From NCBI GenBank assembly GCA_038279365.1, contig JAYODI010000010.1, forward strand, positions 105,966-120,084: a stretch of DNA of 14,119 nucleotides, read 5' to 3'. Both the position numbers and the translations under genes were made by a program. Position 1 is the stretch's first letter; each line of letters opens with the position of its first letter. The stretch comes from Candidatus Latescibacterota bacterium (lineage in GTDB: Bacteria > Latescibacterota > UBA2968). Positions 2-13,847 of the stretch are shown piece by piece. A model generated the notes under the pieces. It was not told where the DNA came from. It did no database searches and worked only from the letters and a program-made list of their open reading frames with translations.

Positions 2-3000
2 CAAATTTCGTAATTGAATGACTGTCACATTATCAAATTGACGCATTGCAGTTTCACGAGCTTTTCTAATGCGACTTATCAACCAAAAAAGCACAAACCA
101 AAAACAACAGATGGGCAAAACAGATACGGTTGTCCAAAATAAGCTTTGGTAATAACCATCAATGCCATAAACACATCCCACCGTTAACAAACCACTGATA
201 ACAATGCCAACCCTGCCAATTTCACGCATCCAATCTTTTACCTGATCCAAACCCATATAAACAACAGGAATAAAGATGAGGGTTGACAACATGGACATTG
301 ACAACCCTCCCAAAACAGTAATTGCAAAAGGCGGCCAAATTTCATAATCTCCGCCAAATTTTAGAGCCAAAGGCATAACCCCCAATAAGGTCGTGGCCGA
401 TGTCATTAAAATTGGCCGCACCCGCGACCGCCCCGCAAAAAGCACAGCGCGTTCTCGCCGAAATCCGTGATCTGTTCGCATTGTATTAATGGCATCAATC
501 AACATGATGCCATTGTTTACGGCAATGCCCAACAAAACAATAAAACCCAACAATGCCATTGGGCCTTCTTGTTGTGTTAGCCCAGTGCCAGAAAGAATTA
601 AAGCCCAACAAGAACCGATAATGGCTGTGGGTAAGGTGCATAAAATAATTATAGGTGCTGAAAATGATTCAAAAAGAGATGCCAAAATCATATAAATCAA
701 AAGCGCTGCAATACCCATCATCCAATAATAAATATTTTCTTCTTTTGCTTCTACGATCTCTATGCTGTATTCATCGGGTAAAATCATTTCGTGTATCACA
801 TTGCGAACCAATTGTCTGGCTTCTTCAATTGCAGGTTGAGAATTTAAGACTTCAGTTGTGAATTGATAACCAACCATCGCACGACGCGATTGGTCTGTTC
901 GCAGAATCATACTTCTCCCCTGATCCGTTCTCACATGTGCAATTTCGTCTAAAGGAACGGTGTGGCCATTAGGAGCAAGAATAGGCATCACCTTAAATTC
1001 TTGTAAATTGGGGCTCTCAGTTTTTGGATCGTCAAGTGTTCGCACATCTATAGACACTTCTAAACCAGATGAGGTTAAAAAGGGCACTGATGTTTGGAAT
1101 CCATCAGGACGCGCATCGCCAATACTTGCCAATACAGTTTGGATATTCAGTTGGCGATCAAACATCATCCATTCATTGGGAATCACCTGCACTTCAGGGG
1201 CACTGCGTTCAACATCTGGCCGAATAGACCCAGGATCAACAATCCCATCCAATTCTTCAAGCCGAAACGCCAAATCGTCGGCCAACATCTGCAAAGTTGA
1301 AAAATCATATCCTCGAATGACGGCCTGTTCTGTTTGGGAAACACCCGTCAAATTAAACCCACCCAAGGACGATCTACCCGTTCCGCCACCCGCACGTCCC
1401 CCCCCTCGCCCAGCTCTTACTGGAGCATCATAACCGATAACGCCCTCACTGATTTCGTTTAATTTTTCACTGAGTGTTTCTTTGATCTGCTCTACAGAAA
1501 TCTCATTAGGTCGTTCTTTTAAGTTGTGCAGAAGCACTGTTATGCTGGCCTGATTTTCTTGAATACTGGTTAAAAAACGGTCGAGCCCAGACACATCCCG
1601 CACGGCACTCTCAACTTCAGAAACCACCTCTTCCGTGGCTTCCAATGTGGCCCCTTCGGGCAAACTGACATAAATTGCAAACTGAGATTCTTCTTGTCTA
1701 ACATCTTGCTGTAACATAAAGAAAAACGAGGCAATAAGCGTTATAACAAATCCCAAAACGATACTTATGGTAACCAATGCCCGATGCCTTAAACCTGACT
1801 TAAGAAAAACAGTGTACATTTGCAATAAAATGCCACGATGAGAAGGTAAACGCGAAGCAGCCGAAAGGGTATATGCAGATAAAGCAGGAACCAATGTGAG
1901 GGCAACCAACAAGGAGGCCATCAATGGAAAGGTCATTGCAAGTGCCAATTCTCGCAAAATATCCTGAGCATCACTTTGAATAAATACAACTGGTAAAAAA
2001 ACGGTTACCGTTGTTGCTGTTGCTGCAACCACAGCACGAGCAACCTCTTCCGTACCTTGGCGCGCGGCTTCAATGGGAGACTTTCCAAGCTCAAAATGCT
2101 TAAAAATATTTTCCATAACCACGATCCCATTGTCTGTCAACATGCCAACAGCCAAAGCCAAACCGCACAAAGACAATACATTTAAACTCAGATCCCAAGC
2201 ATACATTAAGTTGAATGTCACAAGCAAAGAAACAGGTATGGCCAACAACAACACCAACACAAACCGAAAATTTCTCAAAAACAAAAACAGAACAAAAAGC
2301 CCCAAGAGGCCCCCAATGATGGCGGCTTGTTGAAGCGTATTGAGTGCCCCTTCCATCATTTCGGCTTGGTTATTGGTAATGATAACTTCAATTTCTTCAG
2401 AGGCAACATCTTGATTGATATTGGCAATGGCCTTTTCAACTTTACGTGAGACATCAATCAAGTTGGCTTCGTCATCTTTTTGAATGCGTATTCCTACAGA
2501 AGGTTTTCCGTTTACCCGTTGCACATCCGTTTGGGTTTGAGCACCATATCGAATATTTGCAATATCACCCAAGTGAAGGGAGATTTCGGGTTTCACAACC
2601 ACATCTTCTATTTGTTTGATATCTTGAAATTGCTCATGCATGCTTACCGACAATGCTTGATTGCCATCATATACATGCCCCAAATATTGACGCCTTTGAT
2701 TTGCGGCATTGATCCGACTTCTGACCTGAGACAATGACAATTGGTGCGCCCGAATCATCACTGGGTCTACAATAATTTCAATGGCTTCTCTGCGCCCTCC
2801 CAATACTTGTGCGGCCACAACACCATCCACAGCTTCCAATTCTGGCCGTATTTTTTGTTCTGTAAACTCTCTCAGCCAATTTAGATCACCATCGCCCAAA
2901 ACATTAAGTTGCATGATACTTGCGCTTAAATCTGAAGAATCGAATCGCTGCACATTTACCCGACTTCTTTCTGGAAATAAGGCTTGCAAACGGTTCATTC

Positions 3001-3331
3001 GATTTTGCAATTGTAAAAGAGCAAACTTCATATCGGTATCGGGTGCATAAGAAATGCGTATACCCCCAGAATTTGCCCGACAAAAAGACTCCATTACTTG
3101 AACACCATCTAATTTCCCAATCTCTCCTTCGGCTAAGACCACCATCTCTCGTTCAATTTGTTCGGCAGAAGCCCCATTGAGATTAAACGTGATAAATATT
3201 TCAGGAAAAACGAGTTCGGGAAATAATTGCAAGGGCAACCGCGTCCAGGAAATCACACCCAAAATAGCAAGGGCAAGAAAAAACATGGTTGTTGTAACCG
3301 GTCGACGCACAGCAAAGCCAGTAAGTGTCAT
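2..3331 (-). CDS. RND (AcrB/AcrD/AcrF family) permease, second paralog, 3'-truncated by the window edge (>1110 aa), with a C-terminal extension that is a probable fused ABC ATPase domain
   Basis: Not in the ORF track (no in-frame stop in the window); translated by hand. ATG at 3331 overlaps the upstream TGA (ATGA). Begins MTLTGFAVRRPVTTTMFFLALAILGVISWTRLPLQLFPELVFP; TM4 GLALAVGMLTDNGIVVMENIF; TM10 LLGIAVNNGIMLID; TM11 RSRVRPILMTSATT; TM12 VLGGLSMSMLSTLIFIPVVY; then ~80 further residues ending ...NVTVIQLRNL at the edge. Confidence 0.93.
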   Translation of the reverse strand, partial: MTLTGFAVRRPVTTTMFFLALAILGVISWTRLPLQLFPELVFPEIFITFNLNGASAEQIEREMVVLAEGEIGKLDGVQVMESFCRANSGGIRISYAPDTDMKFALLQLQNRMNRLQALFPERSRVNVQRFDSSDLSASIMQLNVLGDGDLNWLREFTEQKIRPELEAVDGVVAAQVLGGRREAIEIIVDPVMIRAHQLSLSQVRSRINAANQRRQYLGHVYDGNQALSVSMHEQFQDIKQIEDVVVKPEISLHLGDIANIRYGAQTQTDVQRVNGKPSVGIRIQKDDEANLIDVSRKVEKAIANINQDVASEEIEVIITNNQAEMMEGALNTLQQAAIIGGLLGLFVLFLFLRNFRFVLVLLLAIPVSLLVTFNLMYAWDLSLNVLSLCGLALAVGMLTDNGIVVMENIFKHFELGKSPIEAARQGTEEVARAVVAATATTVTVFLPVVFIQSDAQDILRELALAMTFPLMASLLVALTLVPALSAYTLSAASRLPSHRGILLQMYTVFLKSGLRHRALVTISIVLGFVITLIASFFFMLQQDVRQEESQFAIYVSLPEGATLEATEEVVSEVESAVRDVSGLDRFLTSIQENQASITVLLHNLKERPNEISVEQIKETLSEKLNEISEGVIGYDAPVRAGRGGGRAGGGTGRSSLGGFNLTGVSQTEQAVIRGYDFSTLQMLADDLAFRLEELDGIVDPGSIRPDVERSAPEVQVIPNEWMMFDRQLNIQTVLASIGDARPDGFQTSVPFLTSSGLEVSIDVRTLDDPKTESPNLQEFKVMPILAPNGHTVPLDEIAHVRTDQGRSMILRTDQSRRAMVGYQFTTEVLNSQPAIEEARQLVRNVIHEMILPDEYSIEIVEAKEENIYYWMMGIAALLIYMILASLFESFSAPIIILCTLPTAIIGSCWALILSGTGLTQQEGPMALLGFIVLLGIAVNNGIMLIDAINTMRTDHGFRRERAVLFAGRSRVRPILMTSATTLLGVMPLALKFGGDYEIWPPFAITVLGGLSMSMLSTLIFIPVVYMGLDQVKDWMREIGRVGIVISGLLTVGCVYGIDGYYQSLFWTTVSVLPICCFWFVLFWLISRIRKARETAMRQFDNVTVIQLRNL

Positions 3332-6300
3332 ACGTGCGCCTTTCCCCGCAATCGATCTACCATCTCATACATGACGGGAATAACCAACAAAGTCATTAAG
3401 GTTGATGTGATAAGCCCCCCAATCACCGCGATGGCCATTGGCGCACGCAAATTTGCCCCATCACCAAATCCAACCACCATTGGAAAAAGTGCCAAAATGG
3501 TTGTGGCGCTGGTCATCATAATTGGGCGCAAACGGTCTTGAGCACCTTGTAACACGGCTTCACGAAGGGGGTGTTGTGTGCGCAATTGATTGATCCTGTC
3601 AACCAGCACAATGGCATCATTAACAGCTATGCCACCTAGCATAATGATGCCAATATATGCCATTACACTCAAAGGTTCTTGCAACATCCAAAATGCAAAG
3701 ACCACACCAACCCCAGCAAGCGGAACAGATAACATCACAGTAAATGGATGGAGCAAAGACTCAAACAATGAAGCCATTACCATATAAACCAAAACAATGG
3801 ACAGGATGAGTGCAAATTTTAAGCTGTCAAAAGACTCTGTGCGTTGCCGTTCTTCTCCACCAATGGTGATGCGATACCCACTGGGAACAACCATTTGTGC
3901 GATCACCAAGTTAAGTTGTTCTATGGCATTGCTCAACGACATGCCATCTGTCACATATGCCGAAATGCGACCAACTCGTTTCTGGCTTTCTCTCAAAATC
4001 TCTCGCGGTCCTTCAATAATCTGCATATCCACAACATCACCCAAAGTCAAAACTGCACCACCACTTGCTTCTATACGAAGGGTTCCCAATTGATTAATAT
4101 CTAAATCTTCGTATTTTACTCGAATATTTCTTGTGCGCTGATCTTTGGAAAGTTCCCCTGCAATTTCCCCTGACAACTGTCTTTCGAGTGTTCGAATAAT
4201 GGTTTGTGTATTCAATCCAAAGGCTGATGCAACCTCTTCTCTCACACTCAAATCCACTTCAGGTTGCCCACCTTGAAAACTGGTTTGTACATTGTATACA
4301 GCAGGTAACGCTGCCATCCTCTGACTGATATCTTTGGTTAATCGTGTTAAAATGTCGAGATTGTCTCCGCTTACCTCAACTTGGATCGGTGCATCTTGCC
4401 CCCCCATGACTCCTTCAAGTGCAGTTTCATGCATATGATATTCAATTTCCACATCTGGCAATTCCCGCAAATGAGGGTCTATGATATCAACTATTTGACT
4501 GACACGTAACAAACGCTCTTTTTTAAGGGCAACAATAACGCTCGAACGATTAGGCCCGGTGGGGTTACCTGCCCCAGAAATTTTGGAAGGGTCAACACCT
4601 GAGCGTATATAAACATGGTCAATGTTGTTCTGGCCTACTTCTGCAACAATTTGTGCTATTCGATTGGCCACACGATCCGTCAATTCCAACCGGGTTCCTT
4701 CTGGCATAGTCAAATCAACCTGAAACAATCCCTGATCTTCACGTGGAATAAACTCTGTTTGCAATCCCTTAAACAGGTATGCAGTTGCTGCGAGCATAAT
4801 TATTGTTGTCATCACAATAAACAACTTGTGGTTTAATGCATTTAATAGAACGACACGATAACGTTTTGCACGTACAATATTTGATTTTTCTGGTTTCATT
4901 TTTTTTAAGAAACGCGCCGTCAACATGGGGACGGTTGTCATGGCAACGACCAAAGAGCAAACCAACGAATAAACAACCGTCCAAGCTTGGTCTTGGAAGA
5001 GTTCGCCAGCCAAACCTTGCACATAAACAATGGGTAAAAAAACAGATACTGTTGTAAGTGTTGAGGCCAATATGGCTACACCCACCTCACTTGCCCCTTG
5101 TGCCGATGCCGTTTGGGCATCTTCACCCATTTCTAAATGTCTGTATATGTTTTCGATTACCACAATGGCATTGTCGACCAACATGCCCGCCCCCAATGCC
5201 AACCCTCCCAAAGTCATGATGTTTAGAGTTAATGATTGGAAGTACATCAATGTAAAAGTAGCCAGTATAGAAATGGGAATGGCCACACCAATAACCAGTG
5301 TGGCCGTCCAATTACGCAAAGCAAGCAACAAAACACCAATGGCCAAAATGGCTCCATAAAGAGCCGATTCTTCTACTTCATCGATGGCATTTTCTATAAA
5401 CCTGGCCTGGTTTTCAACCACAACAAATTGAAGCTCAGGCAAATCGATCATTAAAGCATCTAAAACATCTGTAACCGTGCGAACAACATGAACCGTGTTG
5501 CTTCCCGCCTCTTTGTAAATGGCCAACCCCAAACACACTTTCCCATTGAGGCGAACAATAGTTTCTTGTTCTTGATATACCAAACCTACTTGCCCGACAT
5601 CCTTTACCCGCACAGGCACCCTTACAACACTTGCATCAGCACCACTTTCTCTTCGTTCACCAACAATCAGTTCTCTGACATCGTTTTCATCATTTAGGCG
5701 TCCCAACGCTTTTACCAAAAACGATTGTTGGCCCTCTTTGAGCGTTCCACCCGATATATCTGAATTGGCAGCTTGAATTCTTTCAATGACTGCTGTAGAT
5801 GTCAACCCAAAGGCTTCTAATAAATAAGGATCCAAGATAACTTGAACCTCTTTTTCAACACCCCCTTCTCGCTCTGCAGATGCAATGCCTTCTAATGACT
5901 CCAATTTGGGTTTAATAAGGGTTTCGACCTTACCTACCAAAGCATCCAAATCGTCATCTCCCACAATGGCCAATCGCATCACCGAAGAAGCCTGTGGGTC
6001 TTCCCGGGTCACATCCAATAGGGTAACTTCTTCATCTGAAGCATACACTGCAATTTTTTTTTGCACATCCAACAGTGCAAAATCAATATCAGCATCCCAA
6101 GAAAATTCTGCAATTACCACCACTTGCCCAGAGCGCGTAACAGAATAGACACGCTTGACCTGCCTGACGGTACTGATGTCTCGCTCAATACGCCGTGTAA
6201 AACGTTCTTCCATTTCTTGGGGTGCTTTTCCGGGCGCACGCAGGTCTATGGTAACCACTGGCGTTTGTAAGTCTGGGAGCAAATCGGTGCCCAACCGATC

Positions 6301-6387
6301 AAATGAAATCCAGCCCAAAAGAACCACTGCCAAAGTGGCCATGGCAATGGTTACCGGATAACGGGTTGCAAAATGAGAGAGTGTCAT
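3328..6387 (-). CDS. RND (AcrB/AcrD/AcrF family) efflux permease, 1019 aa
   Basis: Typical RND length and motifs: N-terminal FATRYPVT, TM4 GLALGAGMLVDNAIVVIENI, STLTTVSVFLP, YMVMASLFES, TM10 GIAVNDAIVLVD, RLRPIMMTS, AIAVIGGLITSTLMTLLVIPVMY. Confidence 0.96.
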   Translation of the reverse strand: MTLSHFATRYPVTIAMATLAVVLLGWISFDRLGTDLLPDLQTPVVTIDLRAPGKAPQEMEERFTRRIERDISTVRQVKRVYSVTRSGQVVVIAEFSWDADIDFALLDVQKKIAVYASDEEVTLLDVTREDPQASSVMRLAIVGDDDLDALVGKVETLIKPKLESLEGIASAEREGGVEKEVQVILDPYLLEAFGLTSTAVIERIQAANSDISGGTLKEGQQSFLVKALGRLNDENDVRELIVGERRESGADASVVRVPVRVKDVGQVGLVYQEQETIVRLNGKVCLGLAIYKEAGSNTVHVVRTVTDVLDALMIDLPELQFVVVENQARFIENAIDEVEESALYGAILAIGVLLLALRNWTATLVIGVAIPISILATFTLMYFQSLTLNIMTLGGLALGAGMLVDNAIVVIENIYRHLEMGEDAQTASAQGASEVGVAILASTLTTVSVFLPIVYVQGLAGELFQDQAWTVVYSLVCSLVVAMTTVPMLTARFLKKMKPEKSNIVRAKRYRVVLLNALNHKLFIVMTTIIMLAATAYLFKGLQTEFIPREDQGLFQVDLTMPEGTRLELTDRVANRIAQIVAEVGQNNIDHVYIRSGVDPSKISGAGNPTGPNRSSVIVALKKERLLRVSQIVDIIDPHLRELPDVEIEYHMHETALEGVMGGQDAPIQVEVSGDNLDILTRLTKDISQRMAALPAVYNVQTSFQGGQPEVDLSVREEVASAFGLNTQTIIRTLERQLSGEIAGELSKDQRTRNIRVKYEDLDINQLGTLRIEASGGAVLTLGDVVDMQIIEGPREILRESQKRVGRISAYVTDGMSLSNAIEQLNLVIAQMVVPSGYRITIGGEERQRTESFDSLKFALILSIVLVYMVMASLFESLLHPFTVMLSVPLAGVGVVFAFWMLQEPLSVMAYIGIIMLGGIAVNDAIVLVDRINQLRTQHPLREAVLQGAQDRLRPIMMTSATTILALFPMVVGFGDGANLRAPMAIAVIGGLITSTLMTLLVIPVMYEMVDRLRGKAHV

Positions 6388-6390
6388 ACT

Positions 6391-7449
6391 TCAATTCCCC
6401 TGCCCAGTAACCCGCACTCGGGTGCGTGGACTTAGGGTTTCATAATTGCTTGTTATAATTTGATCACCAACATCCAAACCCGATATGATTTCAACTTGCT
6501 CTCGATCTTCCAACCCCGTTTCAACTTCACGTTGCTGGGCTCTTCCTTCTTCTTCAACAAAAACGACTTTTTGTCCTCGACGACGCTGAACCATTTTTCG
6601 AGCAATCAACACCACATCTTCATGTAATTCAGTAATAATATCTGCCTGAACAAACATCCCTGGCCTAAGGAATAATTGATCGTTTTCAACTGTGCCTACA
6701 GCTCGAAAGGTTCGGGTTGCAGCATCCAACACTGGATTGATCGCAGATATTTCTCCCTCAAAATATTGATCGACAAATGCATAATTTCGAACCCGCAATT
6801 TTTGTCCTATGTTTACTTTGCTGATCTGTGCATTTGGAATTTGTAAATCAATTTTAACCTTAGAAAAGTCAACAATTTTGGCAATCAAAGTATTTTGATT
6901 GATGAGTGTGCCCTGTGTAATGTCTGAAACTTCTGAAAGCACACCACCAATGGGCGCGCGTAATGTTGTTTTGTCAATTTGAATCTCAGCATCTTCATAA
7001 CTTGACTTGGCATCCTGCCAAACCTTTCTGGCATTTTCTACTTCTTTTTCAGTCGTAAGACCTCTTTGAAACAAAACTTCTTGCTCGGCAAGAGTCTTTC
7101 GGGCTGTATCCATTGCCAACTTTTTAGATGAACTGCGTACCCCCACCATCCACTCTTGGTTTTTAAGGCGTGCAATAACTTGCCCTTTGGACACGGCGGT
7201 TCCTTCCGAAACCAGGCGACCATCTGCTTCCTCAAAAAAAAGATCTCCTCGGATTTCGGTGACAATTTGTGCTTCTCTTATGGGGCGCAATGTACCTGTC
7301 GCTGTTACAATCGCTTCAATATTGCCAGAGGTAACAGGCTTAACCGTAACGGGAACTGTCAAATCAACAGTTCTTTGTTCTGTTTGTCTGTTACATCCAC
7401 AAAATAACAAAGCGATAACAAAGCACGTACCCAATCCCCATCGCACCAT
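6391..7449 (-). CDS. RND periplasmic adaptor / membrane fusion protein, probable lipoprotein, 352 aa
   Basis: Signal-like N-terminus ending in a lipobox-like LLFCGC; lipoyl half-motifs (EGTAVSKGQVIARL, LRAPIGGV) flanking an alpha-helical hairpin; LRPGMFV; C-terminal VETG...VEIISGLDVGDQII. GGAGG ribosome-binding site at 7456-7460. Stop codon lies 3 nt before the RND start. Confidence 0.95.
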   Translation of the reverse strand: MVRWGLGTCFVIALLFCGCNRQTEQRTVDLTVPVTVKPVTSGNIEAIVTATGTLRPIREAQIVTEIRGDLFFEEADGRLVSEGTAVSKGQVIARLKNQEWMVGVRSSSKKLAMDTARKTLAEQEVLFQRGLTTEKEVENARKVWQDAKSSYEDAEIQIDKTTLRAPIGGVLSEVSDITQGTLINQNTLIAKIVDFSKVKIDLQIPNAQISKVNIGQKLRVRNYAFVDQYFEGEISAINPVLDAATRTFRAVGTVENDQLFLRPGMFVQADIITELHEDVVLIARKMVQRRRGQKVVFVEEEGRAQQREVETGLEDREQVEIISGLDVGDQIITSNYETLSPRTRVRVTGQGN

Positions 7450-7516
7450 GAAAAACCTCCCAAGTAAATTCTCAAAATTAGTATTCTATAAACATCAAAC
7501 CATCTTTCAATAGATA

Positions 7517-10500
7517 TTAAAACCTCAATCCTCCTTGTTGATTACCACCAACCCTTCCACGGTTTCCCCTTCCACCAAAATTCCACGTGGGCATCTCTTC
7601 TTCATAAACATCAAATGGTTTGTCGGGGTCAATAAAACGCCAACGGATGGCATCGGCATAGAGCATTCCTGGAGACAAATCGGGCAATTCAACCCTTGCA
7701 ATATCGCCTTTTTCAAACTTATAACGCCCCAAAGAATTCCACCCCGCTTTCATTTTATCTCGTTCAAATTGAAGGGTGTCTACTGTGTTTTGGTGAAAGA
7801 CCAACAATGAAAACAATGCCCCAATACGCATTCGTCTTGCCATTTCTGGGTCTAAAAAATAATAAGCAACATCATACTCACCAGTTTTGGGTATTGGGGT
7901 TGTCCAAATAGCGGGTTGCGCCCCATCGCCAGGACTTTTATATCGATAATTGGTTTCGTATCGACCATAAGCCATAGGCATTGTACGCTCCTTCCAGTTC
8001 CCACCCTGAAGTTCTGGTCGTAAATATTTTCGTTCGCGGCGCACGGGCATCTCAAACCCATCGTCGTCGTTATCAACAACCAACTCAATATCCGTTTCTT
8101 CTGAATGCGTTACATCTTTCACATATGCTTCTGGAAATCCCGTCACCACCTGGTCGGGTATGCGAACCGGTGACATGAGGATTCGACGATTCCGAGAAAA
8201 AAACGGTTCGATCATTACCCGAAAAGGTTGTTCCCACATGATCATAGACACTTCAACTTCTTGTCCACCTTCAATTTCAACCCCCTTAACCGCCTCATCC
8301 CCTCTGCCCATTGCGGACACTTGAACAAACCCTCGTCCAGGTTCCCCATTGCGAATCCGAACAATAACTTGATAAACCACCATGCCAAAACCATCATCTA
8401 CTTTATTTGCGATCGCTCGAGTAAGGGTATAACCTGGCACATCCGTACTATGCAACCAATCTCTCATTATTTTTTGAAGGTTTTTATTGGATTCACTTTT
8501 TAATGTATCTCCAACAGCAGCACGTTCAAATGATGCAAAATCTATTTCTTCATACTGATATTCCTTTTCAACATCTTCTACCAATCCCAAAAATTCACTT
8601 TCGCCCAAATAAGCCTTTAGCATTTTGAACATGGCTGGGCCTTTGGCCTCCACCACCTGGCGGTAAAGTTTGGCTTCTTCAGTGGGGTTGAGTTCTGAAA
8701 ATGAACGCTGTTGCATTTTGGCCACAAGCGTATCCCAAGCGGCACTGTTTTCATTAATATTCGGACGCTGAAAACCACCTCGACTTCGCCCCCCTCCTCG
8801 CCCAGCATAAAGCGATGATTGCAAATTGCTGCTCAGATCTTGTTGTAAAAACAGTGGCATCCCTTGTTTTACTAAGGCATAATGGTCTCCCGAAAAAGAT
8901 TTATTAAATGACCATAACTGCACAACTGGGCTACGAAACACACCCGATTGAGAAGAACCTCGCCCACTTGAATTGTTAAAAAACGTGCTCATAACAGCTC
9001 TGACAAATAAATCTCGTTTGATCTGTTTGGGTTCCCGATTGCCCCGGCTGCGCTTTTCTTGGAGGGAAAAATCACGCCGAAAACGCTGCCGATAGAGGGT
9101 GTCTTCTTCTATCATAAGCACCCCTGGGCTTGTCAATCCACCAGTTTCCTCCCAGCCTTCCCAATACCATTGAACTTGAAAAGGCACTTCCACCACAGAA
9201 AGTCGGGGGTATGGATAAAACAACCCAGACTCTTGTTCCATGGCATCTATTATTTGCCCCAAAGCTTCAATTACTTCTTCCTTTGCATCTTCAAAAAAAG
9301 CCACTTGCTTCCAGTGAGATGGGTGCACATAAAGCACACAGTTTATGTCGTGAATATTCGCTTCAATTTTTTTATATATCCCAGCATTTAATGATAACTG
9401 TGGAATCGGTTTTTCTGAGATCCATTCCTGTTTAATTTTTGTATCTGTCGTGTCAGTTTGGGTCGGACTGCCTTGGGTAATGACTTCCAAGCCTTTGGAA
9501 AAAAACAAGGTCAAATGCGTTGTTGAAAACGATTCGGTGCGCCCATTTTCATAACCATAATCCACCCCCGATACCGGATACCATCGGCTACGCGCTGGCA
9601 AAAATACGGAATTCTTTTCTACCCACGCCGTCATAGAACCTTTATTTATTGGCCCATCACGTTTTTTTAATCTGGGCTCACCAAGTTCACGCTGCAGGTC
9701 GAAACCTTCTACATCTATATTTCCCTGGTAAGCCACTTGAAGGACCAGGCTATCCCCCAATGCCAACGCTTGCTCTAACTTTATTTTTATCACACTGCCA
9801 ACTTGCATCCACTTGAGATCTTGGTGATTGATTTTTAATAACGAAACTTTAAGGCCAGAATTAAGCGATAAAATCAATGTGTCTATGGCAACTTTATTTA
9901 CATTTTTTAGATGGATATTTCCACCCACTTTAAGAGGAATATTTTGATTTAATTCGATGGATAAGTCATAATGTGTAATAGATGCTATGGGTTTTGTTGT
10001 CTGAGACTTTTGAATTTGCAGCAGATAAGAACGATAGTCTCGCAGGGATTCTTCAAATGCATTTAATTGCCAATAAGTCACGCCTGCTCCGACCAAACCC
10101 ACAATTGCCAAAGCTCTTCCAAACCAACGCCAAGACAACGATTGTGGCAATCGGGGATATCGATCTATGGATAACCCAAAAAGCCCCAACGCCAAAAGCA
10201 AATACAGCAAACGAAGCACATAAACACGATCAATATTTCCCAAACCCAGCAGATCGGAATAATACAAAGGGGCATAAAATGCTCCAAAATCGAAAAGACC
10301 ATCGTATCGTCGCCCCAAAACCAAAAGTACACCCAGTGCATAGGCAATTACCAGCAACGCTACGGCAGCTTGTCTGCGAAAAACGGCCCCTAAAAAAAAT
10401 GTAAACGAAGACATATAGATCAAACCTGGCACATTCATCAATAACAAATAACCCAAATAAGGCCGGAGAGAAAGTGGCTCACCTGTAATACTTATTTTGG

Positions 10501-10897
10501 CTGCTTGGATGGCCAGTGTTAAAACCATGACACCTATACTTAATGAAACCAATGCCCCAACAACGCCCAAATATTTACCAGTAACCAACTCGGCGGTCGA
10601 AATGGGTCTTGCTGCCACCACCTCATAGATATGTGCACGTTCATCAGCAGCCCGAAAGTCACCAACGATAAACGCAATTACAATGGTCTGCAAGAAGCTA
10701 TAGACATAAAATGGCATAAATGTGCCCAAACCCATGTAAGGCAGTTCAACGCCTCGGGCTTCGGCAATGGCCAATCCAACACCAATAAGCACAGGTATCC
10801 CCATGCCTAAGCCACCCAAAATGCGAAACTTGGTGGTGCGCAATAACATTTTGCGTTCATATCGGGCAACGCCTAAGATATTCCAAAAAGCAATCAT
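7517..10897 (-). CDS. Fusion protein, 1126 aa: ABC-2-type permease + degenerate M1 aminopeptidase-like domain + golvesin/xanthan-lyase C-terminal-like beta-sandwich domain
   Basis: N-terminal ~270 aa has several hydrophobic segments and ABC-2 hallmarks (VARYERKMLLR, ARPISTAELVTGKYLG). The middle has M1-scaffold motifs (ITHYDLSIEL, WYPV, YPYPRLSVVEVP, KGPAMFKMLKAYLGESEF, RDWLHSTDVPGY) but no HExxH. The C-terminus reads VVDNDDDGF...AIWTTPIPKTGEYDV...GWNSLGRYKF...YADAIRW. Start overlaps the ATPase stop (ATGA). Confidence 0.82.
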   Translation of the reverse strand: MIAFWNILGVARYERKMLLRTTKFRILGGLGMGIPVLIGVGLAIAEARGVELPYMGLGTFMPFYVYSFLQTIVIAFIVGDFRAADERAHIYEVVAARPISTAELVTGKYLGVVGALVSLSIGVMVLTLAIQAAKISITGEPLSLRPYLGYLLLMNVPGLIYMSSFTFFLGAVFRRQAAVALLVIAYALGVLLVLGRRYDGLFDFGAFYAPLYYSDLLGLGNIDRVYVLRLLYLLLALGLFGLSIDRYPRLPQSLSWRWFGRALAIVGLVGAGVTYWQLNAFEESLRDYRSYLLQIQKSQTTKPIASITHYDLSIELNQNIPLKVGGNIHLKNVNKVAIDTLILSLNSGLKVSLLKINHQDLKWMQVGSVIKIKLEQALALGDSLVLQVAYQGNIDVEGFDLQRELGEPRLKKRDGPINKGSMTAWVEKNSVFLPARSRWYPVSGVDYGYENGRTESFSTTHLTLFFSKGLEVITQGSPTQTDTTDTKIKQEWISEKPIPQLSLNAGIYKKIEANIHDINCVLYVHPSHWKQVAFFEDAKEEVIEALGQIIDAMEQESGLFYPYPRLSVVEVPFQVQWYWEGWEETGGLTSPGVLMIEEDTLYRQRFRRDFSLQEKRSRGNREPKQIKRDLFVRAVMSTFFNNSSGRGSSQSGVFRSPVVQLWSFNKSFSGDHYALVKQGMPLFLQQDLSSNLQSSLYAGRGGGRSRGGFQRPNINENSAAWDTLVAKMQQRSFSELNPTEEAKLYRQVVEAKGPAMFKMLKAYLGESEFLGLVEDVEKEYQYEEIDFASFERAAVGDTLKSESNKNLQKIMRDWLHSTDVPGYTLTRAIANKVDDGFGMVVYQVIVRIRNGEPGRGFVQVSAMGRGDEAVKGVEIEGGQEVEVSMIMWEQPFRVMIEPFFSRNRRILMSPVRIPDQVVTGFPEAYVKDVTHSEETDIELVVDNDDDGFEMPVRRERKYLRPELQGGNWKERTMPMAYGRYETNYRYKSPGDGAQPAIWTTPIPKTGEYDVAYYFLDPEMARRMRIGALFSLLVFHQNTVDTLQFERDKMKAGWNSLGRYKFEKGDIARVELPDLSPGMLYADAIRWRFIDPDKPFDVYEEEMPTWNFGGRGNRGRVGGNQQGGLRF

Positions 10898-11814
10898 ATT
10901 TTCAGGTCTTCATTTTGTGAGATTTTGTGAGAAATCTCCGCATCATCCTCATCCATAAAATAAACATATGCATCTTCCAAATTGGGTAAAACACTCCTTG
11001 CTTGCAAGGGAGGTTTTGCGTCTCCTACCATGCGCAATTTCAATAAACCACCTTCAACCTGTACGTTTACCACCCGAAATTGCCTCGATAACTCTTCAAA
11101 GCGCGTATCATTAACTTCCATTTCCCACGTTTTATTTTGGGCTTGTTGAATTAAGTTTGATGGGGAACCACGAAAAACCAATTTACCCATTTTCAAAATC
11201 GCAACATCATCACAGATACTTGAAATATCGCCCACAATATGGGTTGAAATGAGAATTGCTCTGTCTCGGCTTAAGCGTGCCAATATCCCTCGAAAACGAA
11301 TGCGTTCTTCCGGGTCCAAACCGACAGTAGGTTCATCGACAATCAAAAACTCTGGATCACCCAAGATGGCTTGAGCAATGCCCAAGCGGCGCATCATGCC
11401 ACCAGAAAATGTGCCCGATTCTCGATTGCGGGCATCCAATAATCCCACATCATTTAAGGCCTTTTCGACACGTAACTGGCGGTTCTTAGAGTCATGTAAT
11501 CCTGCCAGCAATGCCATATAATCTAAAAATTCAATTGCAGTAAGTTTGGGATACGTTCCAAAATGTTGTGGCAAATATCCCAAACGCTTTCGGATCTCAG
11601 TACGGTTATGCTTTAAATCCAAATGATCCATTTGTACCCTACCCGATGATGGCTCAATTTGGGTGGATAAGATTTTAATTAAGGTCGTTTTCCCTGCACC
11701 ATTGGGGCCAAGCAATCCAAAAGTGCCGGGAGGAATATCAAAGGTCACTTGATCAAGGGAAGCCCTTGGGCTTTTGGGATACACTTTTGTCAGATTTTGA
11801 ATTTTTATAATCAC
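10894..11814 (-). CDS. ABC transporter ATP-binding protein (ABC-2/DrrA-like exporter ATPase), 306 aa
   Basis: Walker A GPNGAGKT, Q-loop YLPQ, signature FSGGM, Walker B FLIVDEP, H-loop STH, C-terminal PNLEDAY. GTG start. Confidence 0.96.
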   Translation of the reverse strand: MIIKIQNLTKVYPKSPRASLDQVTFDIPPGTFGLLGPNGAGKTTLIKILSTQIEPSSGRVQMDHLDLKHNRTEIRKRLGYLPQHFGTYPKLTAIEFLDYMALLAGLHDSKNRQLRVEKALNDVGLLDARNRESGTFSGGMMRRLGIAQAILGDPEFLIVDEPTVGLDPEERIRFRGILARLSRDRAILISTHIVGDISSICDDVAILKMGKLVFRGSPSNLIQQAQNKTWEMEVNDTRFEELSRQFRVVNVQVEGGLLKLRMVGDAKPPLQARSVLPNLEDAYVYFMDEDDAEISHKISQNEDLKI

Positions 11815-11848
11815 GGCATCTCTTTCATTTATGTTTCAATTTGAAAAA

Positions 11849-11877
11849 TTAGACTGTTGTATTTTATGGTATGTTCC
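11849..11877 (-). promoter_or_regulatory. Putative ECF sigma (RpoE/AlgU-type) promoter for the ABC/RND operon
   Basis: Minus strand reads GGAACAT-accataaaatacaaca (16 nt)-GTCTAA, versus the sigmaE consensus GGAACTT-N16-GTCNAA. It lies 34 nt upstream of the GTG start and downstream of a terminator. Confidence 0.6.
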
Positions 11878-11912
11878 CATTGTGTTATTAAATGAATAAT
11901 TGTTCATATATA

Positions 11913-11951
11913 AAAAAGACTTTTCAACCCAAAAGGTTAAAAAGTCTTTTT
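11913..11951 (-). terminator. Rho-independent terminator after cheV, possibly bidirectional
   Basis: 17-bp inverted repeat. Minus strand reads AAAAAGACTTTTTAACC-ttttg-GGTTGAAAAGTCTTTTT, ending in a U-tract. The single mismatch forms a G.U pair only on the minus-strand transcript. Located ~55 nt past the cheV stop. Confidence 0.75.
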
Positions 11952-12004
11952 ATTTAACTTATAAACAACAATGATCTGTTTGATCCCAATTAAGAACGAT
12001 CAAA

Positions 12005-12910
12005 TCAAGCAGGAATCATCTCGAACAAGTTGGCAATGGTAGCAATCAGTTTTTCCGGTTCAGCCTTTGAAATGTGTCCATCAGCTCCAACAGCTTCACA
12101 TTTAGAAACCATTTGATCTGTTATTAGAGATGACAATATCAACACTTTTAAGCTTGGAAATTGCAGCTTCACTTTTTTACACAAAGTTAATCCATCTAAA
12201 ACAGGCATTTCAATATCAGAAATGAGCACATCAAACCCCTCTTCTGGATGGGTTCTTTCCATAGAGACAATTTGATCGTATGCCTCTTGCCCATTGCCAC
12301 ATATTACAACACGCTTAAAACCTGCCTTATCCAACATTTTGGAAAGTTGCTGTCGAACCAATGCAGAGTCATCTGCCACGATCAAACGCCAAGCACTGGG
12401 ATCAAAACCTGAAACCACATCCAAAGAATGGGTTTCTTGATGCTTTCTGCCCACAACTTCGCCTACTATACTTTCTAAGTCCATAATCATTATTTCACGG
12501 TTTTCAATTGGCACAATACCTGTAATCATGGCTTGTATTTTTTGCACCAAATATGATGGAGACTGACTCTGATCCCAAGATATCCTATAAATCTTGGTGA
12601 GTCCCTCAACTAAAAACCCATAAGAAGATTTATTAAATTCACAAATGACTGCCACCATATCAGTTGCAGGCTTTTTTTCATGCCCAAAATATGTACCTAA
12701 ATCTATAAGAGGTAGTGATTTGTCACGAAACAAAAACATACCCTTAACCGCTGGGTGTAAACCATATATTTTGGTAAGGCTTTTGGAATCATAGCTCACA
12801 ATCTGTTTTACCTTTAATACATTCACACCATAACTTTGCCCACCAACCAACAATTCCAAAACTTCCACTTCATTGGTTCCCGTTTCGAGCAAAATACCTT
12901 TGTCGTTCAT
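12005..12910 (-). CDS. cheV: Chemotaxis protein CheV (CheW + receiver domain), 301 aa
   Basis: CheV-typical N-terminus ILLETGTNEVEVL, YGVNVLKVKQIV, HPAVKGMFLFRDKSLPLIDL (CheW-like). The REC domain has IVADDS, phosphoacceptor SDIEMPVLDG, LILSS and HISK. Confidence 0.9.
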   Translation of the reverse strand: MNDKGILLETGTNEVEVLELLVGGQSYGVNVLKVKQIVSYDSKSLTKIYGLHPAVKGMFLFRDKSLPLIDLGTYFGHEKKPATDMVAVICEFNKSSYGFLVEGLTKIYRISWDQSQSPSYLVQKIQAMITGIVPIENREIMIMDLESIVGEVVGRKHQETHSLDVVSGFDPSAWRLIVADDSALVRQQLSKMLDKAGFKRVVICGNGQEAYDQIVSMERTHPEEGFDVLISDIEMPVLDGLTLCKKVKLQFPSLKVLILSSLITDQMVSKCEAVGADGHISKAEPEKLIATIANLFEMIPA

Positions 12911-13046: not shown

Positions 13047-13847
13047 TTATCCAGTATAGAGGTTATATCGATTGCCACGGGCAAAACCAACCAGGGTGAT
13101 TTTTAATGCCTGAGCCAACTCAACCGCCAATGATGTGGGCGCCGATATGCCAATAACCACAGAAATGCGTCCCATTGCTGCTTTTTGTATAATCTCAAAA
13201 CTCACCCGCCCACTCACAACAAGCGTTGTTGCCGTTCCTAACCCATCACTTTCAAATAATTTCCCAATGACCTTATCTGTTGCATTGTGTCGTCCAACAT
13301 CCTCAAAACACGCCAACAAATCTCCAGAGCGTGAAAATGCAGCCACGGCATGAACACCCCCAGTTAAATCAAATAGGGGTTGTTGCGAAGACAATTTTGT
13401 CACACATTGGGCTACTTGATCACTTTGAATGGGTAAAAAAACAGGAAATGGTTGACACCTTTCGATCAAGTCTTCAATTTGAGTTCTGCCACAAACACCA
13501 CAGGCAGAACCAATTAGCGTTCCTCTTTTGATATTAGTTTTTTTTTCAAAGTTCAATAGGACACCGGGTGCTGGTTGCACATCGACCACATTCCCATATT
13601 CTGGCGTGCCAAGTCGCCCACAATGAAAAACTTTTCCAATTTGACTGCGTTTTTCAACAAACCCTTCAGAAAAGAAAAAACCTTGGGCCAACAAATAATC
13701 ATGACCTGGTGTTCGCATCGTGGTGGCAATGGTTTCACCAGACAACCGCAATTCCAAAGGTTCTTCTATTGCCAACCAATCATCTTGAGCGTAATTCATA
13801 TCTCCAAATTTTACAATCCTTTGGATTTTAGATCTTTCTTTTATCAT
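13047..13847 (-). CDS. fdhD: Formate dehydrogenase accessory sulfurtransferase FdhD, 266 aa
   Basis: EEPLELR, MRTPGHD...GFFFSEG, SACGVCG (CxxC), TGGVHA, EDVGRHNATDKVIG, SGRVSFEIIQKA, SAPTSLAV, LVGFAR. Confidence 0.96.
   Translation of the reverse strand: MIKERSKIQRIVKFGDMNYAQDDWLAIEEPLELRLSGETIATTMRTPGHDYLLAQGFFFSEGFVEKRSQIGKVFHCGRLGTPEYGNVVDVQPAPGVLLNFEKKTNIKRGTLIGSACGVCGRTQIEDLIERCQPFPVFLPIQSDQVAQCVTKLSSQQPLFDLTGGVHAVAAFSRSGDLLACFEDVGRHNATDKVIGKLFESDGLGTATTLVVSGRVSFEIIQKAAMGRISVVIGISAPTSLAVELAQALKITLVGFARGNRYNLYTG

Follow-up and report, generated by a model that had tools for sequence, protein, structure and literature searches.

A conserved gene cluster linking an RND permease to an ABC ATPase, a candidate composite envelope exporter

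Gene order and the RND2-ATPase fusion

A 14,119-nt stretch of contig JAYODI010000010.1 from a Candidatus Latescibacterota bacterium, hereafter "the window," carries five genes of a conserved six-gene cluster that brings together ATP-binding cassette (ABC) and resistance-nodulation-division (RND) proteins. The order of the cluster is ATP1, an ABC ATPase; FUS, a fusion of permease, M1-like and Golvesin_C parts; MFP, a periplasmic adaptor; RND1 and RND2, two RND permeases, the second joined to an ABC ATPase; and a small permease. In relatives of this genome, RND2 is one protein of ~1570 residues, in which the RND core is extended by six additional membrane helices and an ABC ATPase. Coordinates below are window positions unless an L-numbered locus is given.

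A first-pass annotation had described five co-oriented genes with tight junctions, and this layout is confirmed by the coordinates of the open reading frames (ORFs) and by the sequence letters. All five lie on the reverse strand. ATP1 (10894..11814) is an ORF of 306 amino acids (aa) with a GTG start and encodes an ABC-2-class ATPase. It is followed by FUS (7517..10897, 1126 aa), by the RND-type adaptor gene MFP (6391..7449, 352 aa), which has a probable lipoprotein signal, by RND1 (3328..6387, 1019 aa), and by the window part of RND2 (2..3331, 1110 aa), the 3' end of which is open. ATGA overlaps join ATP1 to FUS (10897-10894) and RND1 to RND2 (3331-3328). A gap of 67 nt occupies 7450-7516, and 3 nt separate the adaptor stop from the RND1 start.

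The last of these genes had been read as an extended RND permease. The extension is real, but as a complete gene this reading is wrong, because RND2 is cut at the window edge by a run of 10 N (L002:11957-11966) that directly precedes window position 1 and falls at the fusion point. Within the window, residues 1-1027 (251..3331, reverse strand) form the RND core, with an ACR_tran match at residues 5-1027, and residues 1028-1110 (2..250, reverse strand) begin the extension with two extra membrane helices and the first strand of an ATPase. Beyond the N run, an open ORF (L002:10659-11954, reverse strand) encodes four further hydrophobic helices and an ABC ATPase (ABC_tran, E 3.1e-27). Its stop overlaps the start of the sixth gene (L002:10009-10665, reverse strand), which encodes the small ABC-2-type permease.

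Five relatives have single ORFs of 1562-1575 aa to which the window piece of RND2 and the ORF beyond the gap can be aligned over the whole length, and by this alignment ~21-24 RND2 residues fall within the gap. A public contig of 1429 nt extends 694 nt past window position 1. One relative (L004) has Pfam matches to ACR_tran (5-1027) and ABC_tran (1290-1433) in a single ORF, and the cultured Bacteroidota isolate Ancylomarina euxinus likewise has both in one ORF of 1574 aa. What had been read as an extended RND permease is therefore a fusion of such a permease with an ABC ATPase, and six genes make up the cluster.

Fused RND2 orthologues come from Latescibacterota, from metagenome-assembled genomes labelled Gemmatimonadota, from Acidobacteriota, and from Bacteroidota. 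RND2 was detected in 60 loci, and in 57 of these its ORF includes the ATPase. Two of the remaining three are cut by the locus end, one of these showing a frame of 1577 aa, and the third (L062) is split. In this last case, a Thermoanaerobaculia chromosome (L062:1-4705, reverse strand), the gene is present as two overlapping ORFs of 805 aa and 765 aa, which could reflect a frameshift, a sequencing error, or a true split.

A profile of the linker, built from residues 1028-1300 of the L004 protein, matched only 89 clusters (50% identity) among 1.84 billion representatives. The linker is located at approximately residues 1016-1322 in every match of at least 1550 aa (~27 proteins), and shorter matches look like fragments. 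A Bacteroidota RND2 query retrieved 238 clusters at 90% identity, the names of which include "efflux RND transporter permease subunit" and "ABC transporter ATP-binding protein."

An AlphaFold2 model of the RND2 C-terminal part (L004:9306-10910, 535 residues, pLDDT confidence score 79.7) begins with two helices and a strand (77-87), continues through a short amphipathic helix and four long helices, and ends in the ATPase core. In VIA-align comparisons, residues 1-2 of many solved ABC ATPases fall at model positions 74-77 and the remainder after position ~255, with Z scores of 25-27. This placement predicts a split ATPase domain, in which the first strand would be separated from the rest by a four-helix membrane insertion of ~170 residues. 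The split-off strand carries an invariant L-T-K-x-Y-G word. We know of no comparable split ATPase domain. The structures nearest to the fused ATPase include NosF (ranks 9, 13, and 35), ABCA-type ATPases, and LptB.

The sixth gene matches ABC-2 permease models (PF12679 or PF12698) in seven of nine orthologues, with a best E value of 1.3e-7. A further N stretch lies inside this gene in the genome under study (L002:10009-10665); it is read as XXXX, and ~20 residues are missing relative to orthologues.

Components of the cluster and their inheritance

ATP1 matches Pfam ABC_tran with an E value of 2.1e-31. Walker A, Q-loop, FSGGM signature, Walker B Asp-Glu, and H-loop are intact in ATP1 and in the fused ATPase, and an alignment of 34 rows shows the catalytic motifs of the latter to be conserved throughout, the Walker-B Glu and the H-loop His among them. 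In each of four genomes tested, the closest paralogue of ATP1 is the RND2-fused ATPase (45-46% identity, compared with at most 38% for others). Scores for the GldA and GldF equivalogs are below cut-offs (GldA, 193.5 versus 402.6 for ATP1; GldF, 16.6 versus 288.5). Each ATPase gene or domain is directly followed by a permease gene of its own, with stop and start overlapping. ATP1 does not adjoin FUS in three genomes (L017, L018, and L019), which keep a 69%-identical copy 0.4-1.4 Mb away.

The FUS protein combines three parts, all encoded on the reverse strand. Residues 1-298 (10004..10897) form a membrane domain with an amphipathic N-terminal helix and seven predicted helices, residues 306-816 (8450..9982) form an M1-like ectodomain with a β N-domain and a helical thermolysin-like domain, and residues 823-1088 (7634..8431) form a β-sandwich and a Golvesin_C module of the CBM6/35/36-like type, after which comes a disordered Gly/Arg-rich tail. 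The AlphaFold2 model of FUS (pLDDT 84.3, pTM 0.80) has its helices at residues 22-47, 55-78, 101-138, 145-172, 176-197, 223-246, and 254-298. The membrane part is thus predicted to be an ABC-2 or NosY-like permease with one extra helix, and because the helices number seven, the large remaining part should lie outside the cytoplasm. Relatives of FUS bear the JGI name "multi-copper enzyme maturation permease," which corresponds to a NosY-type COG. Pfam scores are just below the cut-offs for ABC2_membrane_3 (27.5 versus 31.6 bits) and Peptidase_M1 (26.5 versus 27.7 bits), and above the cut-off for Golvesin_C (54.8 versus 31.6 bits; E 1.3e-14).

M1 zinc aminopeptidases carry an HExxH...E zinc site and a GxMEN motif. 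When the FUS ectodomain is searched with Foldseek, the matches are M1 enzymes, namely IRAP (E 1.7e-19), ERAP1/2, F3, and the two-domain M1 structure 6kp1, over a range of E values from 1.7e-19 to ~5e-16. A profile of the FUS family matches the Deinococcus two-domain M1 on both flanks and not across the catalytic core, and the corresponding stretch of FUS (residues 512-753) does not align to M1 sequences. GxMEN was found in none of 79 family members, and an H[ED]xxH word occurs in five of the 79, only at approximately residues 806-814, outside the catalytic-core stretch. An M1 fold that lacks the zinc motif marks the ectodomain as a pseudo-peptidase and, judged from sequence and model, a catalytically dead one.

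The last module of FUS is, by sequence, of a carbohydrate-binding type. It matches the C-terminal module of a Paenibacillus xanthan lyase (6f2p) with an E value of 3.8e-11, which accounts for the "xanthan lyase" mislabel that the first-pass annotation had mentioned for similar genes. The CBM6/35/36-like class to which the module belongs also occurs in Bacteroides lectins, according to the part of the source consulted (PMC9166713). The tail of FUS is a disordered Gly/Arg/Asn-rich segment at residues 1105-1126 (7517-7600, reverse strand; pLDDT <50), and similar Gly/Arg-rich loops occur at approximately residues 640-665 of RND2 and 701-718 of FUS itself.

The adaptor is of the RND type, as it matches HlyD_D23 (E 3.6e-24) and scores 178.2 bits with TIGR01730 (cut-off 94.9). 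Both permeases match ACR_tran over nearly its full length (RND1, E 5.2e-235; RND2, E 2.6e-184) and are 30% identical to one another. Their scores with the MdtC and MdtB models, 403.1 and 358.4 for RND1 and 349.7 and 308 for RND2, are below the cut-offs of 1774 and 1584.

The classical proton relay of RND pumps comprises an Asp-Asp pair in transmembrane helix 4 (TM4), a Lys in TM10, and an Arg in TM11 (AcrB residues 407, 408, 940, and 971). Relay positions were located by alignment to MdtB, CusA, ZneA, and AcrB-type chains. In both RND1 and RND2, TM4 has Asp-Asn, compared with Asp-Asp in HAE-1 pumps, and the TM10 Lys of those pumps is replaced by Asn. The next TM10 position is Asp in RND1 and Asn in RND2, and the TM11 Arg and Thr are kept in both. 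Neither paralogue therefore fits the classical Asp-Asp/Lys pattern, and on these alignments the ATPase-bearing RND2 is the poorer of the pair in titratable residues. Because the relay-site residues are invariant in 59 of 59 RND1 orthologues and 58 of 58 RND2 orthologues, the altered relay marks RND1 and RND2 as a separate RND lineage.

A scan for relatives of FUS, using one genome per species, gave 78 loci, in which ORFs were labelled by the window proteins. The RND set adjoins FUS in 62 of the 68 loci with informative flanks. Adaptor and RND1 lie downstream on the same strand in 51 loci. In 11 others, all labelled Acidobacteriota or Thermoanaerobaculia, adaptor, RND1, and RND2 are inverted and lie divergently upstream of ATP1 and FUS. 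Six loci have ~10 kb of flank on each side and no RND gene, and ten have too little flank on the relevant side. In five of the six RND-less loci, FUS is a second copy, and the same genome carries a linked one as well (RND-less/linked pairs L036/L071, L054/L009, L072/L055, L073/L019, and L075/L049).

The first-pass annotation also mentioned similar gene sets in Bacteroidota, and such sets exist. Two loci (L077 and L079) in which FUS is 24-26% identical keep ATP1, FUS, MFP, RND1, the RND2-ATPase fusion (1576 and 1577 aa), and then the small permease, and they have in addition a gene for a TolC-family outer-membrane factor (OEP) between FUS and the adaptor. The sixth RND-less locus, from Desulfatiglandales (L080, FUS-like protein 22% identical), was rejected as a member, as both the RND2 linker and the small permease are absent from its genome.

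An unselected set of 168 genomes from the phylum of the window was then searched with profiles for the RND2 linker and for FUS. The linker was found in 84 genomes and FUS in 85; 81 genomes have both, 7 have one alone, and 80 have neither, counts in which related genomes are not independent. The three genomes with the linker only are 58-86% complete. Among the four with FUS only, two have strong matches (76-90% complete) and two have weak, partial ones. Both markers lie on one contig and strand within ~7-12 kb in 67 of the 81 genomes that have both. The other 14 are all assemblies of at least 160 contigs, and the markers are never apart in assemblies of six contigs or fewer. This pattern of co-occurrence is seen in five families of the phylum, as well as in loci labelled Acidobacteriota and Bacteroidota. 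Whether the ABC pair and the RND trio accompany each other in other genomes had been set beforehand as a test capable of refuting the proposal of one machine, and by both measures, adjacency and co-occurrence, they do. The set of six genes, or seven with OEP, is inherited as a unit across phyla.

Two of the second copies (L054:9006-19595 and L036:9006-19747) are FUS-like genes, ~53% identical, with an ATP1-like gene of their own and no RND gene. On the downstream side, both pairs are followed by glycosyltransferase genes of the GT4 and GT28 types; upstream of them are genes for a radical-SAM protein and a sigma-54 response regulator. Another second copy (L073) shares the radical-SAM gene and one glycosyltransferase gene with them. 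The glycosyltransferase neighbours of L036 and L054, which are close kin, are a weak hint of a glycan substrate.

A possible mode of action and its alternatives

We consider it likely, with a probability of roughly 0.7, that the cluster encodes one composite envelope exporter built from ABC and RND parts. The covalent RND2-ATPase link is observed in relatives; how the other parts assemble around it we infer. RND1 and RND2 would form a heterotrimer similar to MdtBC, together with the adaptor and a TolC-family channel, the latter presumably supplied by the in-cluster gene in Bacteroidota and from elsewhere in the present genome. Two ABC-2 modules, one of them covalently attached, would be held at the RND pump, and ATP hydrolysis by these modules would load or gate it. 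The modules might move a substrate located in the membrane or periplasm, or drive changes in a periplasmic arm, as in NosDFY, MacB, and LptB2FG. The pseudo-peptidase and lectin-like arm of FUS could then capture the substrate and hand it to the RND porter for expulsion. Gene layout and the existence of free-standing paralogous pairs lead us to favor two homodimeric ABC transporters, while the close kinship of the two ATPases allows one heterodimeric transporter. A heterodimeric permease is without support, because the small permease bears no more than a faint resemblance to the FUS membrane domain.

Several observations weigh against a single exporter. ABC ATPases work as dimers and RND pumps as trimers, which poses a problem of stoichiometry. 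The likeness of the small permease to the FUS membrane domain is slight (BLASTP E 0.31; a collinear hhalign match with a probability of 12.6%), and we do not claim them as paralogues. ATP1-like/FUS-like pairs or FUS copies with no RND gene within 10 kb are found in five loci (L036, L054, L072, L073, and L075), and thus the ATP1/FUS pair can exist alone. Of the 26 OEP domain matches in the genome, none is on this contig or in the cluster. The continuity of RND2 in this particular genome we infer across the 10 N from orthologues and from the 1429-nt public contig. Finally, the proposed substrate, probably a glycan-bearing or peptide-bearing envelope molecule, is deduced from domain types alone. 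A complex prediction for the FUS membrane domain and the small permease (L033) gave 0.06 compared with a mark of 0.32; it had no controls and weighs neither way.

A bolder proposal is that ATP hydrolysis is coupled directly to an RND protomer, such that primary and secondary transport merge in a dual-energised pump. RND2, with its one acidic relay residue, would be driven or licensed by its built-in ATPase, RND1 would use the proton gradient, and the second ABC module would select cargo by means of its dead peptidase and lectin-like arm. This proposal is tentative, and we judge it to be distinctly less probable than a composite exporter in the general sense. If true, such a pump would be a categorically new transporter class.

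Less probable than a composite exporter are two cooperating and physically separate units. The small permease and the RND trio, fused ATPase included, would make up one machine, and ATP1/FUS would be an independent homodimeric ABC-2 transporter that acts before or after it in the same pathway, co-regulated with it and not docked to it. Each ATPase is trailed directly by its own permease, which is the usual layout of homodimeric ABC-2 transporters. The pairs without RND genes in L036 and L054, and the relocation of ATP1 by 0.4-1.4 Mb without loss, also fit separate units. However, co-inheritance of the two halves is near perfect in the 168 genomes, and their adjacency outlasts both the inversion and the OEP insertion, which is beyond what would be expected of mere pathway partners.

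Alternatively, the fused ATPase might be a nucleotide-sensing or gating switch of a proton-driven RND pump, with the small permease and the six helices as a mere anchor. Acidic residues in TM4 and TM10 of RND1 and the TM11 Arg are invariant, so proton coupling without ATP is plausible, and the C-terminal extra domain of the ATPase resembles the regulatory domains of TM_1403 and NosF. However, conservation of the catalytic motifs, including the Walker-B Glu and the H-loop His, argues for hydrolysis, and a dedicated ABC-2-type permease partner is conserved next to the ATPase. We regard a mere switch as improbable. That the genes are unrelated neighbours, or that the fused frame is an artefact of assembly or annotation, as the 10-N run at the fusion point here and the two overlapping ORFs of L062 might suggest, is highly improbable in view of the unbroken ~1570-aa frames in many single-contig assemblies, in 57 of 60 loci, and in cultured isolates (Ancylomarina, Labilibaculum, and Marinifilum), and of the constant position of the linker in all ~27 matches of sufficient length.

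The composite exporter can be compared with several known systems. As in MdtABC-TolC, one adaptor gene is followed by two genes for paralogous RND permeases, and for the TM4 and TM10-12 segments, MdtB ranks first or second among the solved matches. MdtBC is a rare heterotrimeric case among RND pumps, according to the consulted part of a review (PMC8277102). In contrast to MdtABC, the TM4 Asp-Asp and TM10 Lys are replaced in the present proteins, MdtB and MdtC model scores are far below cut-offs, one paralogue has six extra helices and an ABC ATPase, and ABC-2 genes flank the operon.

NosDFY(L) likewise has an ABC-2-class ATPase with a C-terminal extra domain and a large periplasmic part attached to the permease. 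In the Nos complex, ATP drives periplasmic events rather than transmembrane flux. Unlike in that system, the periplasmic part is here fused to the permease and has an M1-like fold instead of a β-helix, no nos genes are nearby, and the cluster also contains RND proteins, an adaptor, and a second ABC module. MacAB-TolC and DevBCA-HgdD, to the extent covered by the sources consulted, also combine ATP-driven modules with an MFP-type adaptor and a TolC-family channel, and take their substrate from the membrane or periplasm. However, MacB is a four-helix permease with a periplasmic domain of its own and a fused N-terminal ATPase, and it has no RND subunit. FUS, by comparison, has seven helices and no ATPase, the permeases of the cluster are of the ABC-2 type, and the adaptor scores as an RND adaptor.

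The closest described counterpart of FUS is in TCDB family 3.A.1.145, where a Myxococcus xanthus protein (Q1D520) has an N-terminal ABC-2 domain fused to a C-terminal Peptidase M1 domain (~1200 aa), and a relative is annotated as "multi-copper enzyme maturation" (PMC3924187, consulted in part). Compared by description, that protein has 13 transmembrane segments and a zinc-dependent aminopeptidase, whereas FUS has seven predicted helices and no zinc motif; the consulted part of the description mentions no RND partners (PMC3924187). SecYEG-SecA with SecDF offers a purely conceptual likeness, in that a proton-driven protein of the RND superfamily and an ATPase-driven translocase act on one substrate (PMC8277102, consulted in part). 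Unlike in the present cluster, these are separate proteins, with no ABC fold, adaptor, or outer-membrane channel. None of the systems compared has an RND subunit fused to an ABC ATPase.

Full-text searches of open-access PMC and bioRxiv produced no description of an RND-ABC fusion or of this cluster, and such a fusion is not described in the examined part of the 2021 review (PMC8277102). Identity with an already characterised transporter, which had been named in advance as grounds for abandoning the proposal, was thus not found in the literature searched. We regard the cluster as a variant of tripartite efflux systems.

RND pumps are classically described as antiporters driven by protons and ABC transporters as machines driven by ATP, and a tripartite efflux system is viewed as having either the one or the other as its inner-membrane engine. 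If the proposed exporter is real, the widely conserved covalent fusion would show that cells combine both energy sources in one exporter. Cultured Marinifilaceae offer a tractable system for studying the passage of substrates from inner-membrane transporters to RND pumps. The cluster is also a clear example of a peptidase fold put to non-catalytic use in the periplasm, and it permits correction of generic annotations such as "efflux RND transporter permease subunit," "ABC transporter ATP-binding protein," and "hypothetical protein."

Environmental sequences, boundaries and neighbouring genes

The stretch is present in DNA runs from estuary, marine, and marsh metagenomes. One metatranscriptome run contains six contigs of at least 95% likeness, on RND1, FUS, and ATP1, although carry-over of DNA is possible, and one of the six, 261 nt long, spans the ATP1/FUS junction. 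The run covers 6 of 30 bins, and the uncovered bins carry no meaning. These contigs are a hint that the cluster is expressed. A 570-nt "joint" and some loose ends in ATP1 were considered as signs of a deletion variant, which was rejected, because at least one loose end (10967) is due to cross-mapping of the paralogous RND2 ATPase, whose gene end lies in L002.

Upstream of ATP1, the first-pass annotation had placed a terminator and a candidate promoter. The terminator is upheld by folding. A terminator-like hairpin (11907..11951, reverse strand), with an 18-bp A+T-rich stem and a U run, lies 3' of a CheV-like gene, and its folded stem (~11913-11951) has a free energy of -20 kcal/mol and a z score of -5.5, which none of 200 shuffled sequences equalled. 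A strict, G+C-demanding terminator scan of 11700-12100 found nothing, as the stem is A+T-rich. The promoter does not stand, as the number of promoter-like sites (3) is at the level expected by chance (1.8 ± 1.5). The hairpin is the 5' boundary of the cluster.

Three loci (L046:150-7983, L047:168-4582, and L048:1-6025, reverse strand) have a second, ordinary operon with an adaptor gene and an RND gene (RND1-like, 640-660 bits) upstream of ATP1 in divergent orientation, and one of the two Bacteroidota-type loci (L077) has an additional adaptor-RND pair upstream.

In the window, the genes upstream of the cluster are a CheW-plus-receiver (CheV-like) gene (12005-12910, reverse strand) and fdhD (13047-13847, reverse strand). 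In many close relatives (L005-L016, L041, L049, and L071), fdhD is directly upstream of ATP1, with no CheV gene between them, and in L018 it is directly upstream of FUS. Two flagellin genes lie directly downstream of the cluster (L002:7240-8466, reverse strand, and 8700-9887, forward strand). Thus, with the CheV-like gene on the other side, motility genes flank the cluster on both sides in this genome.

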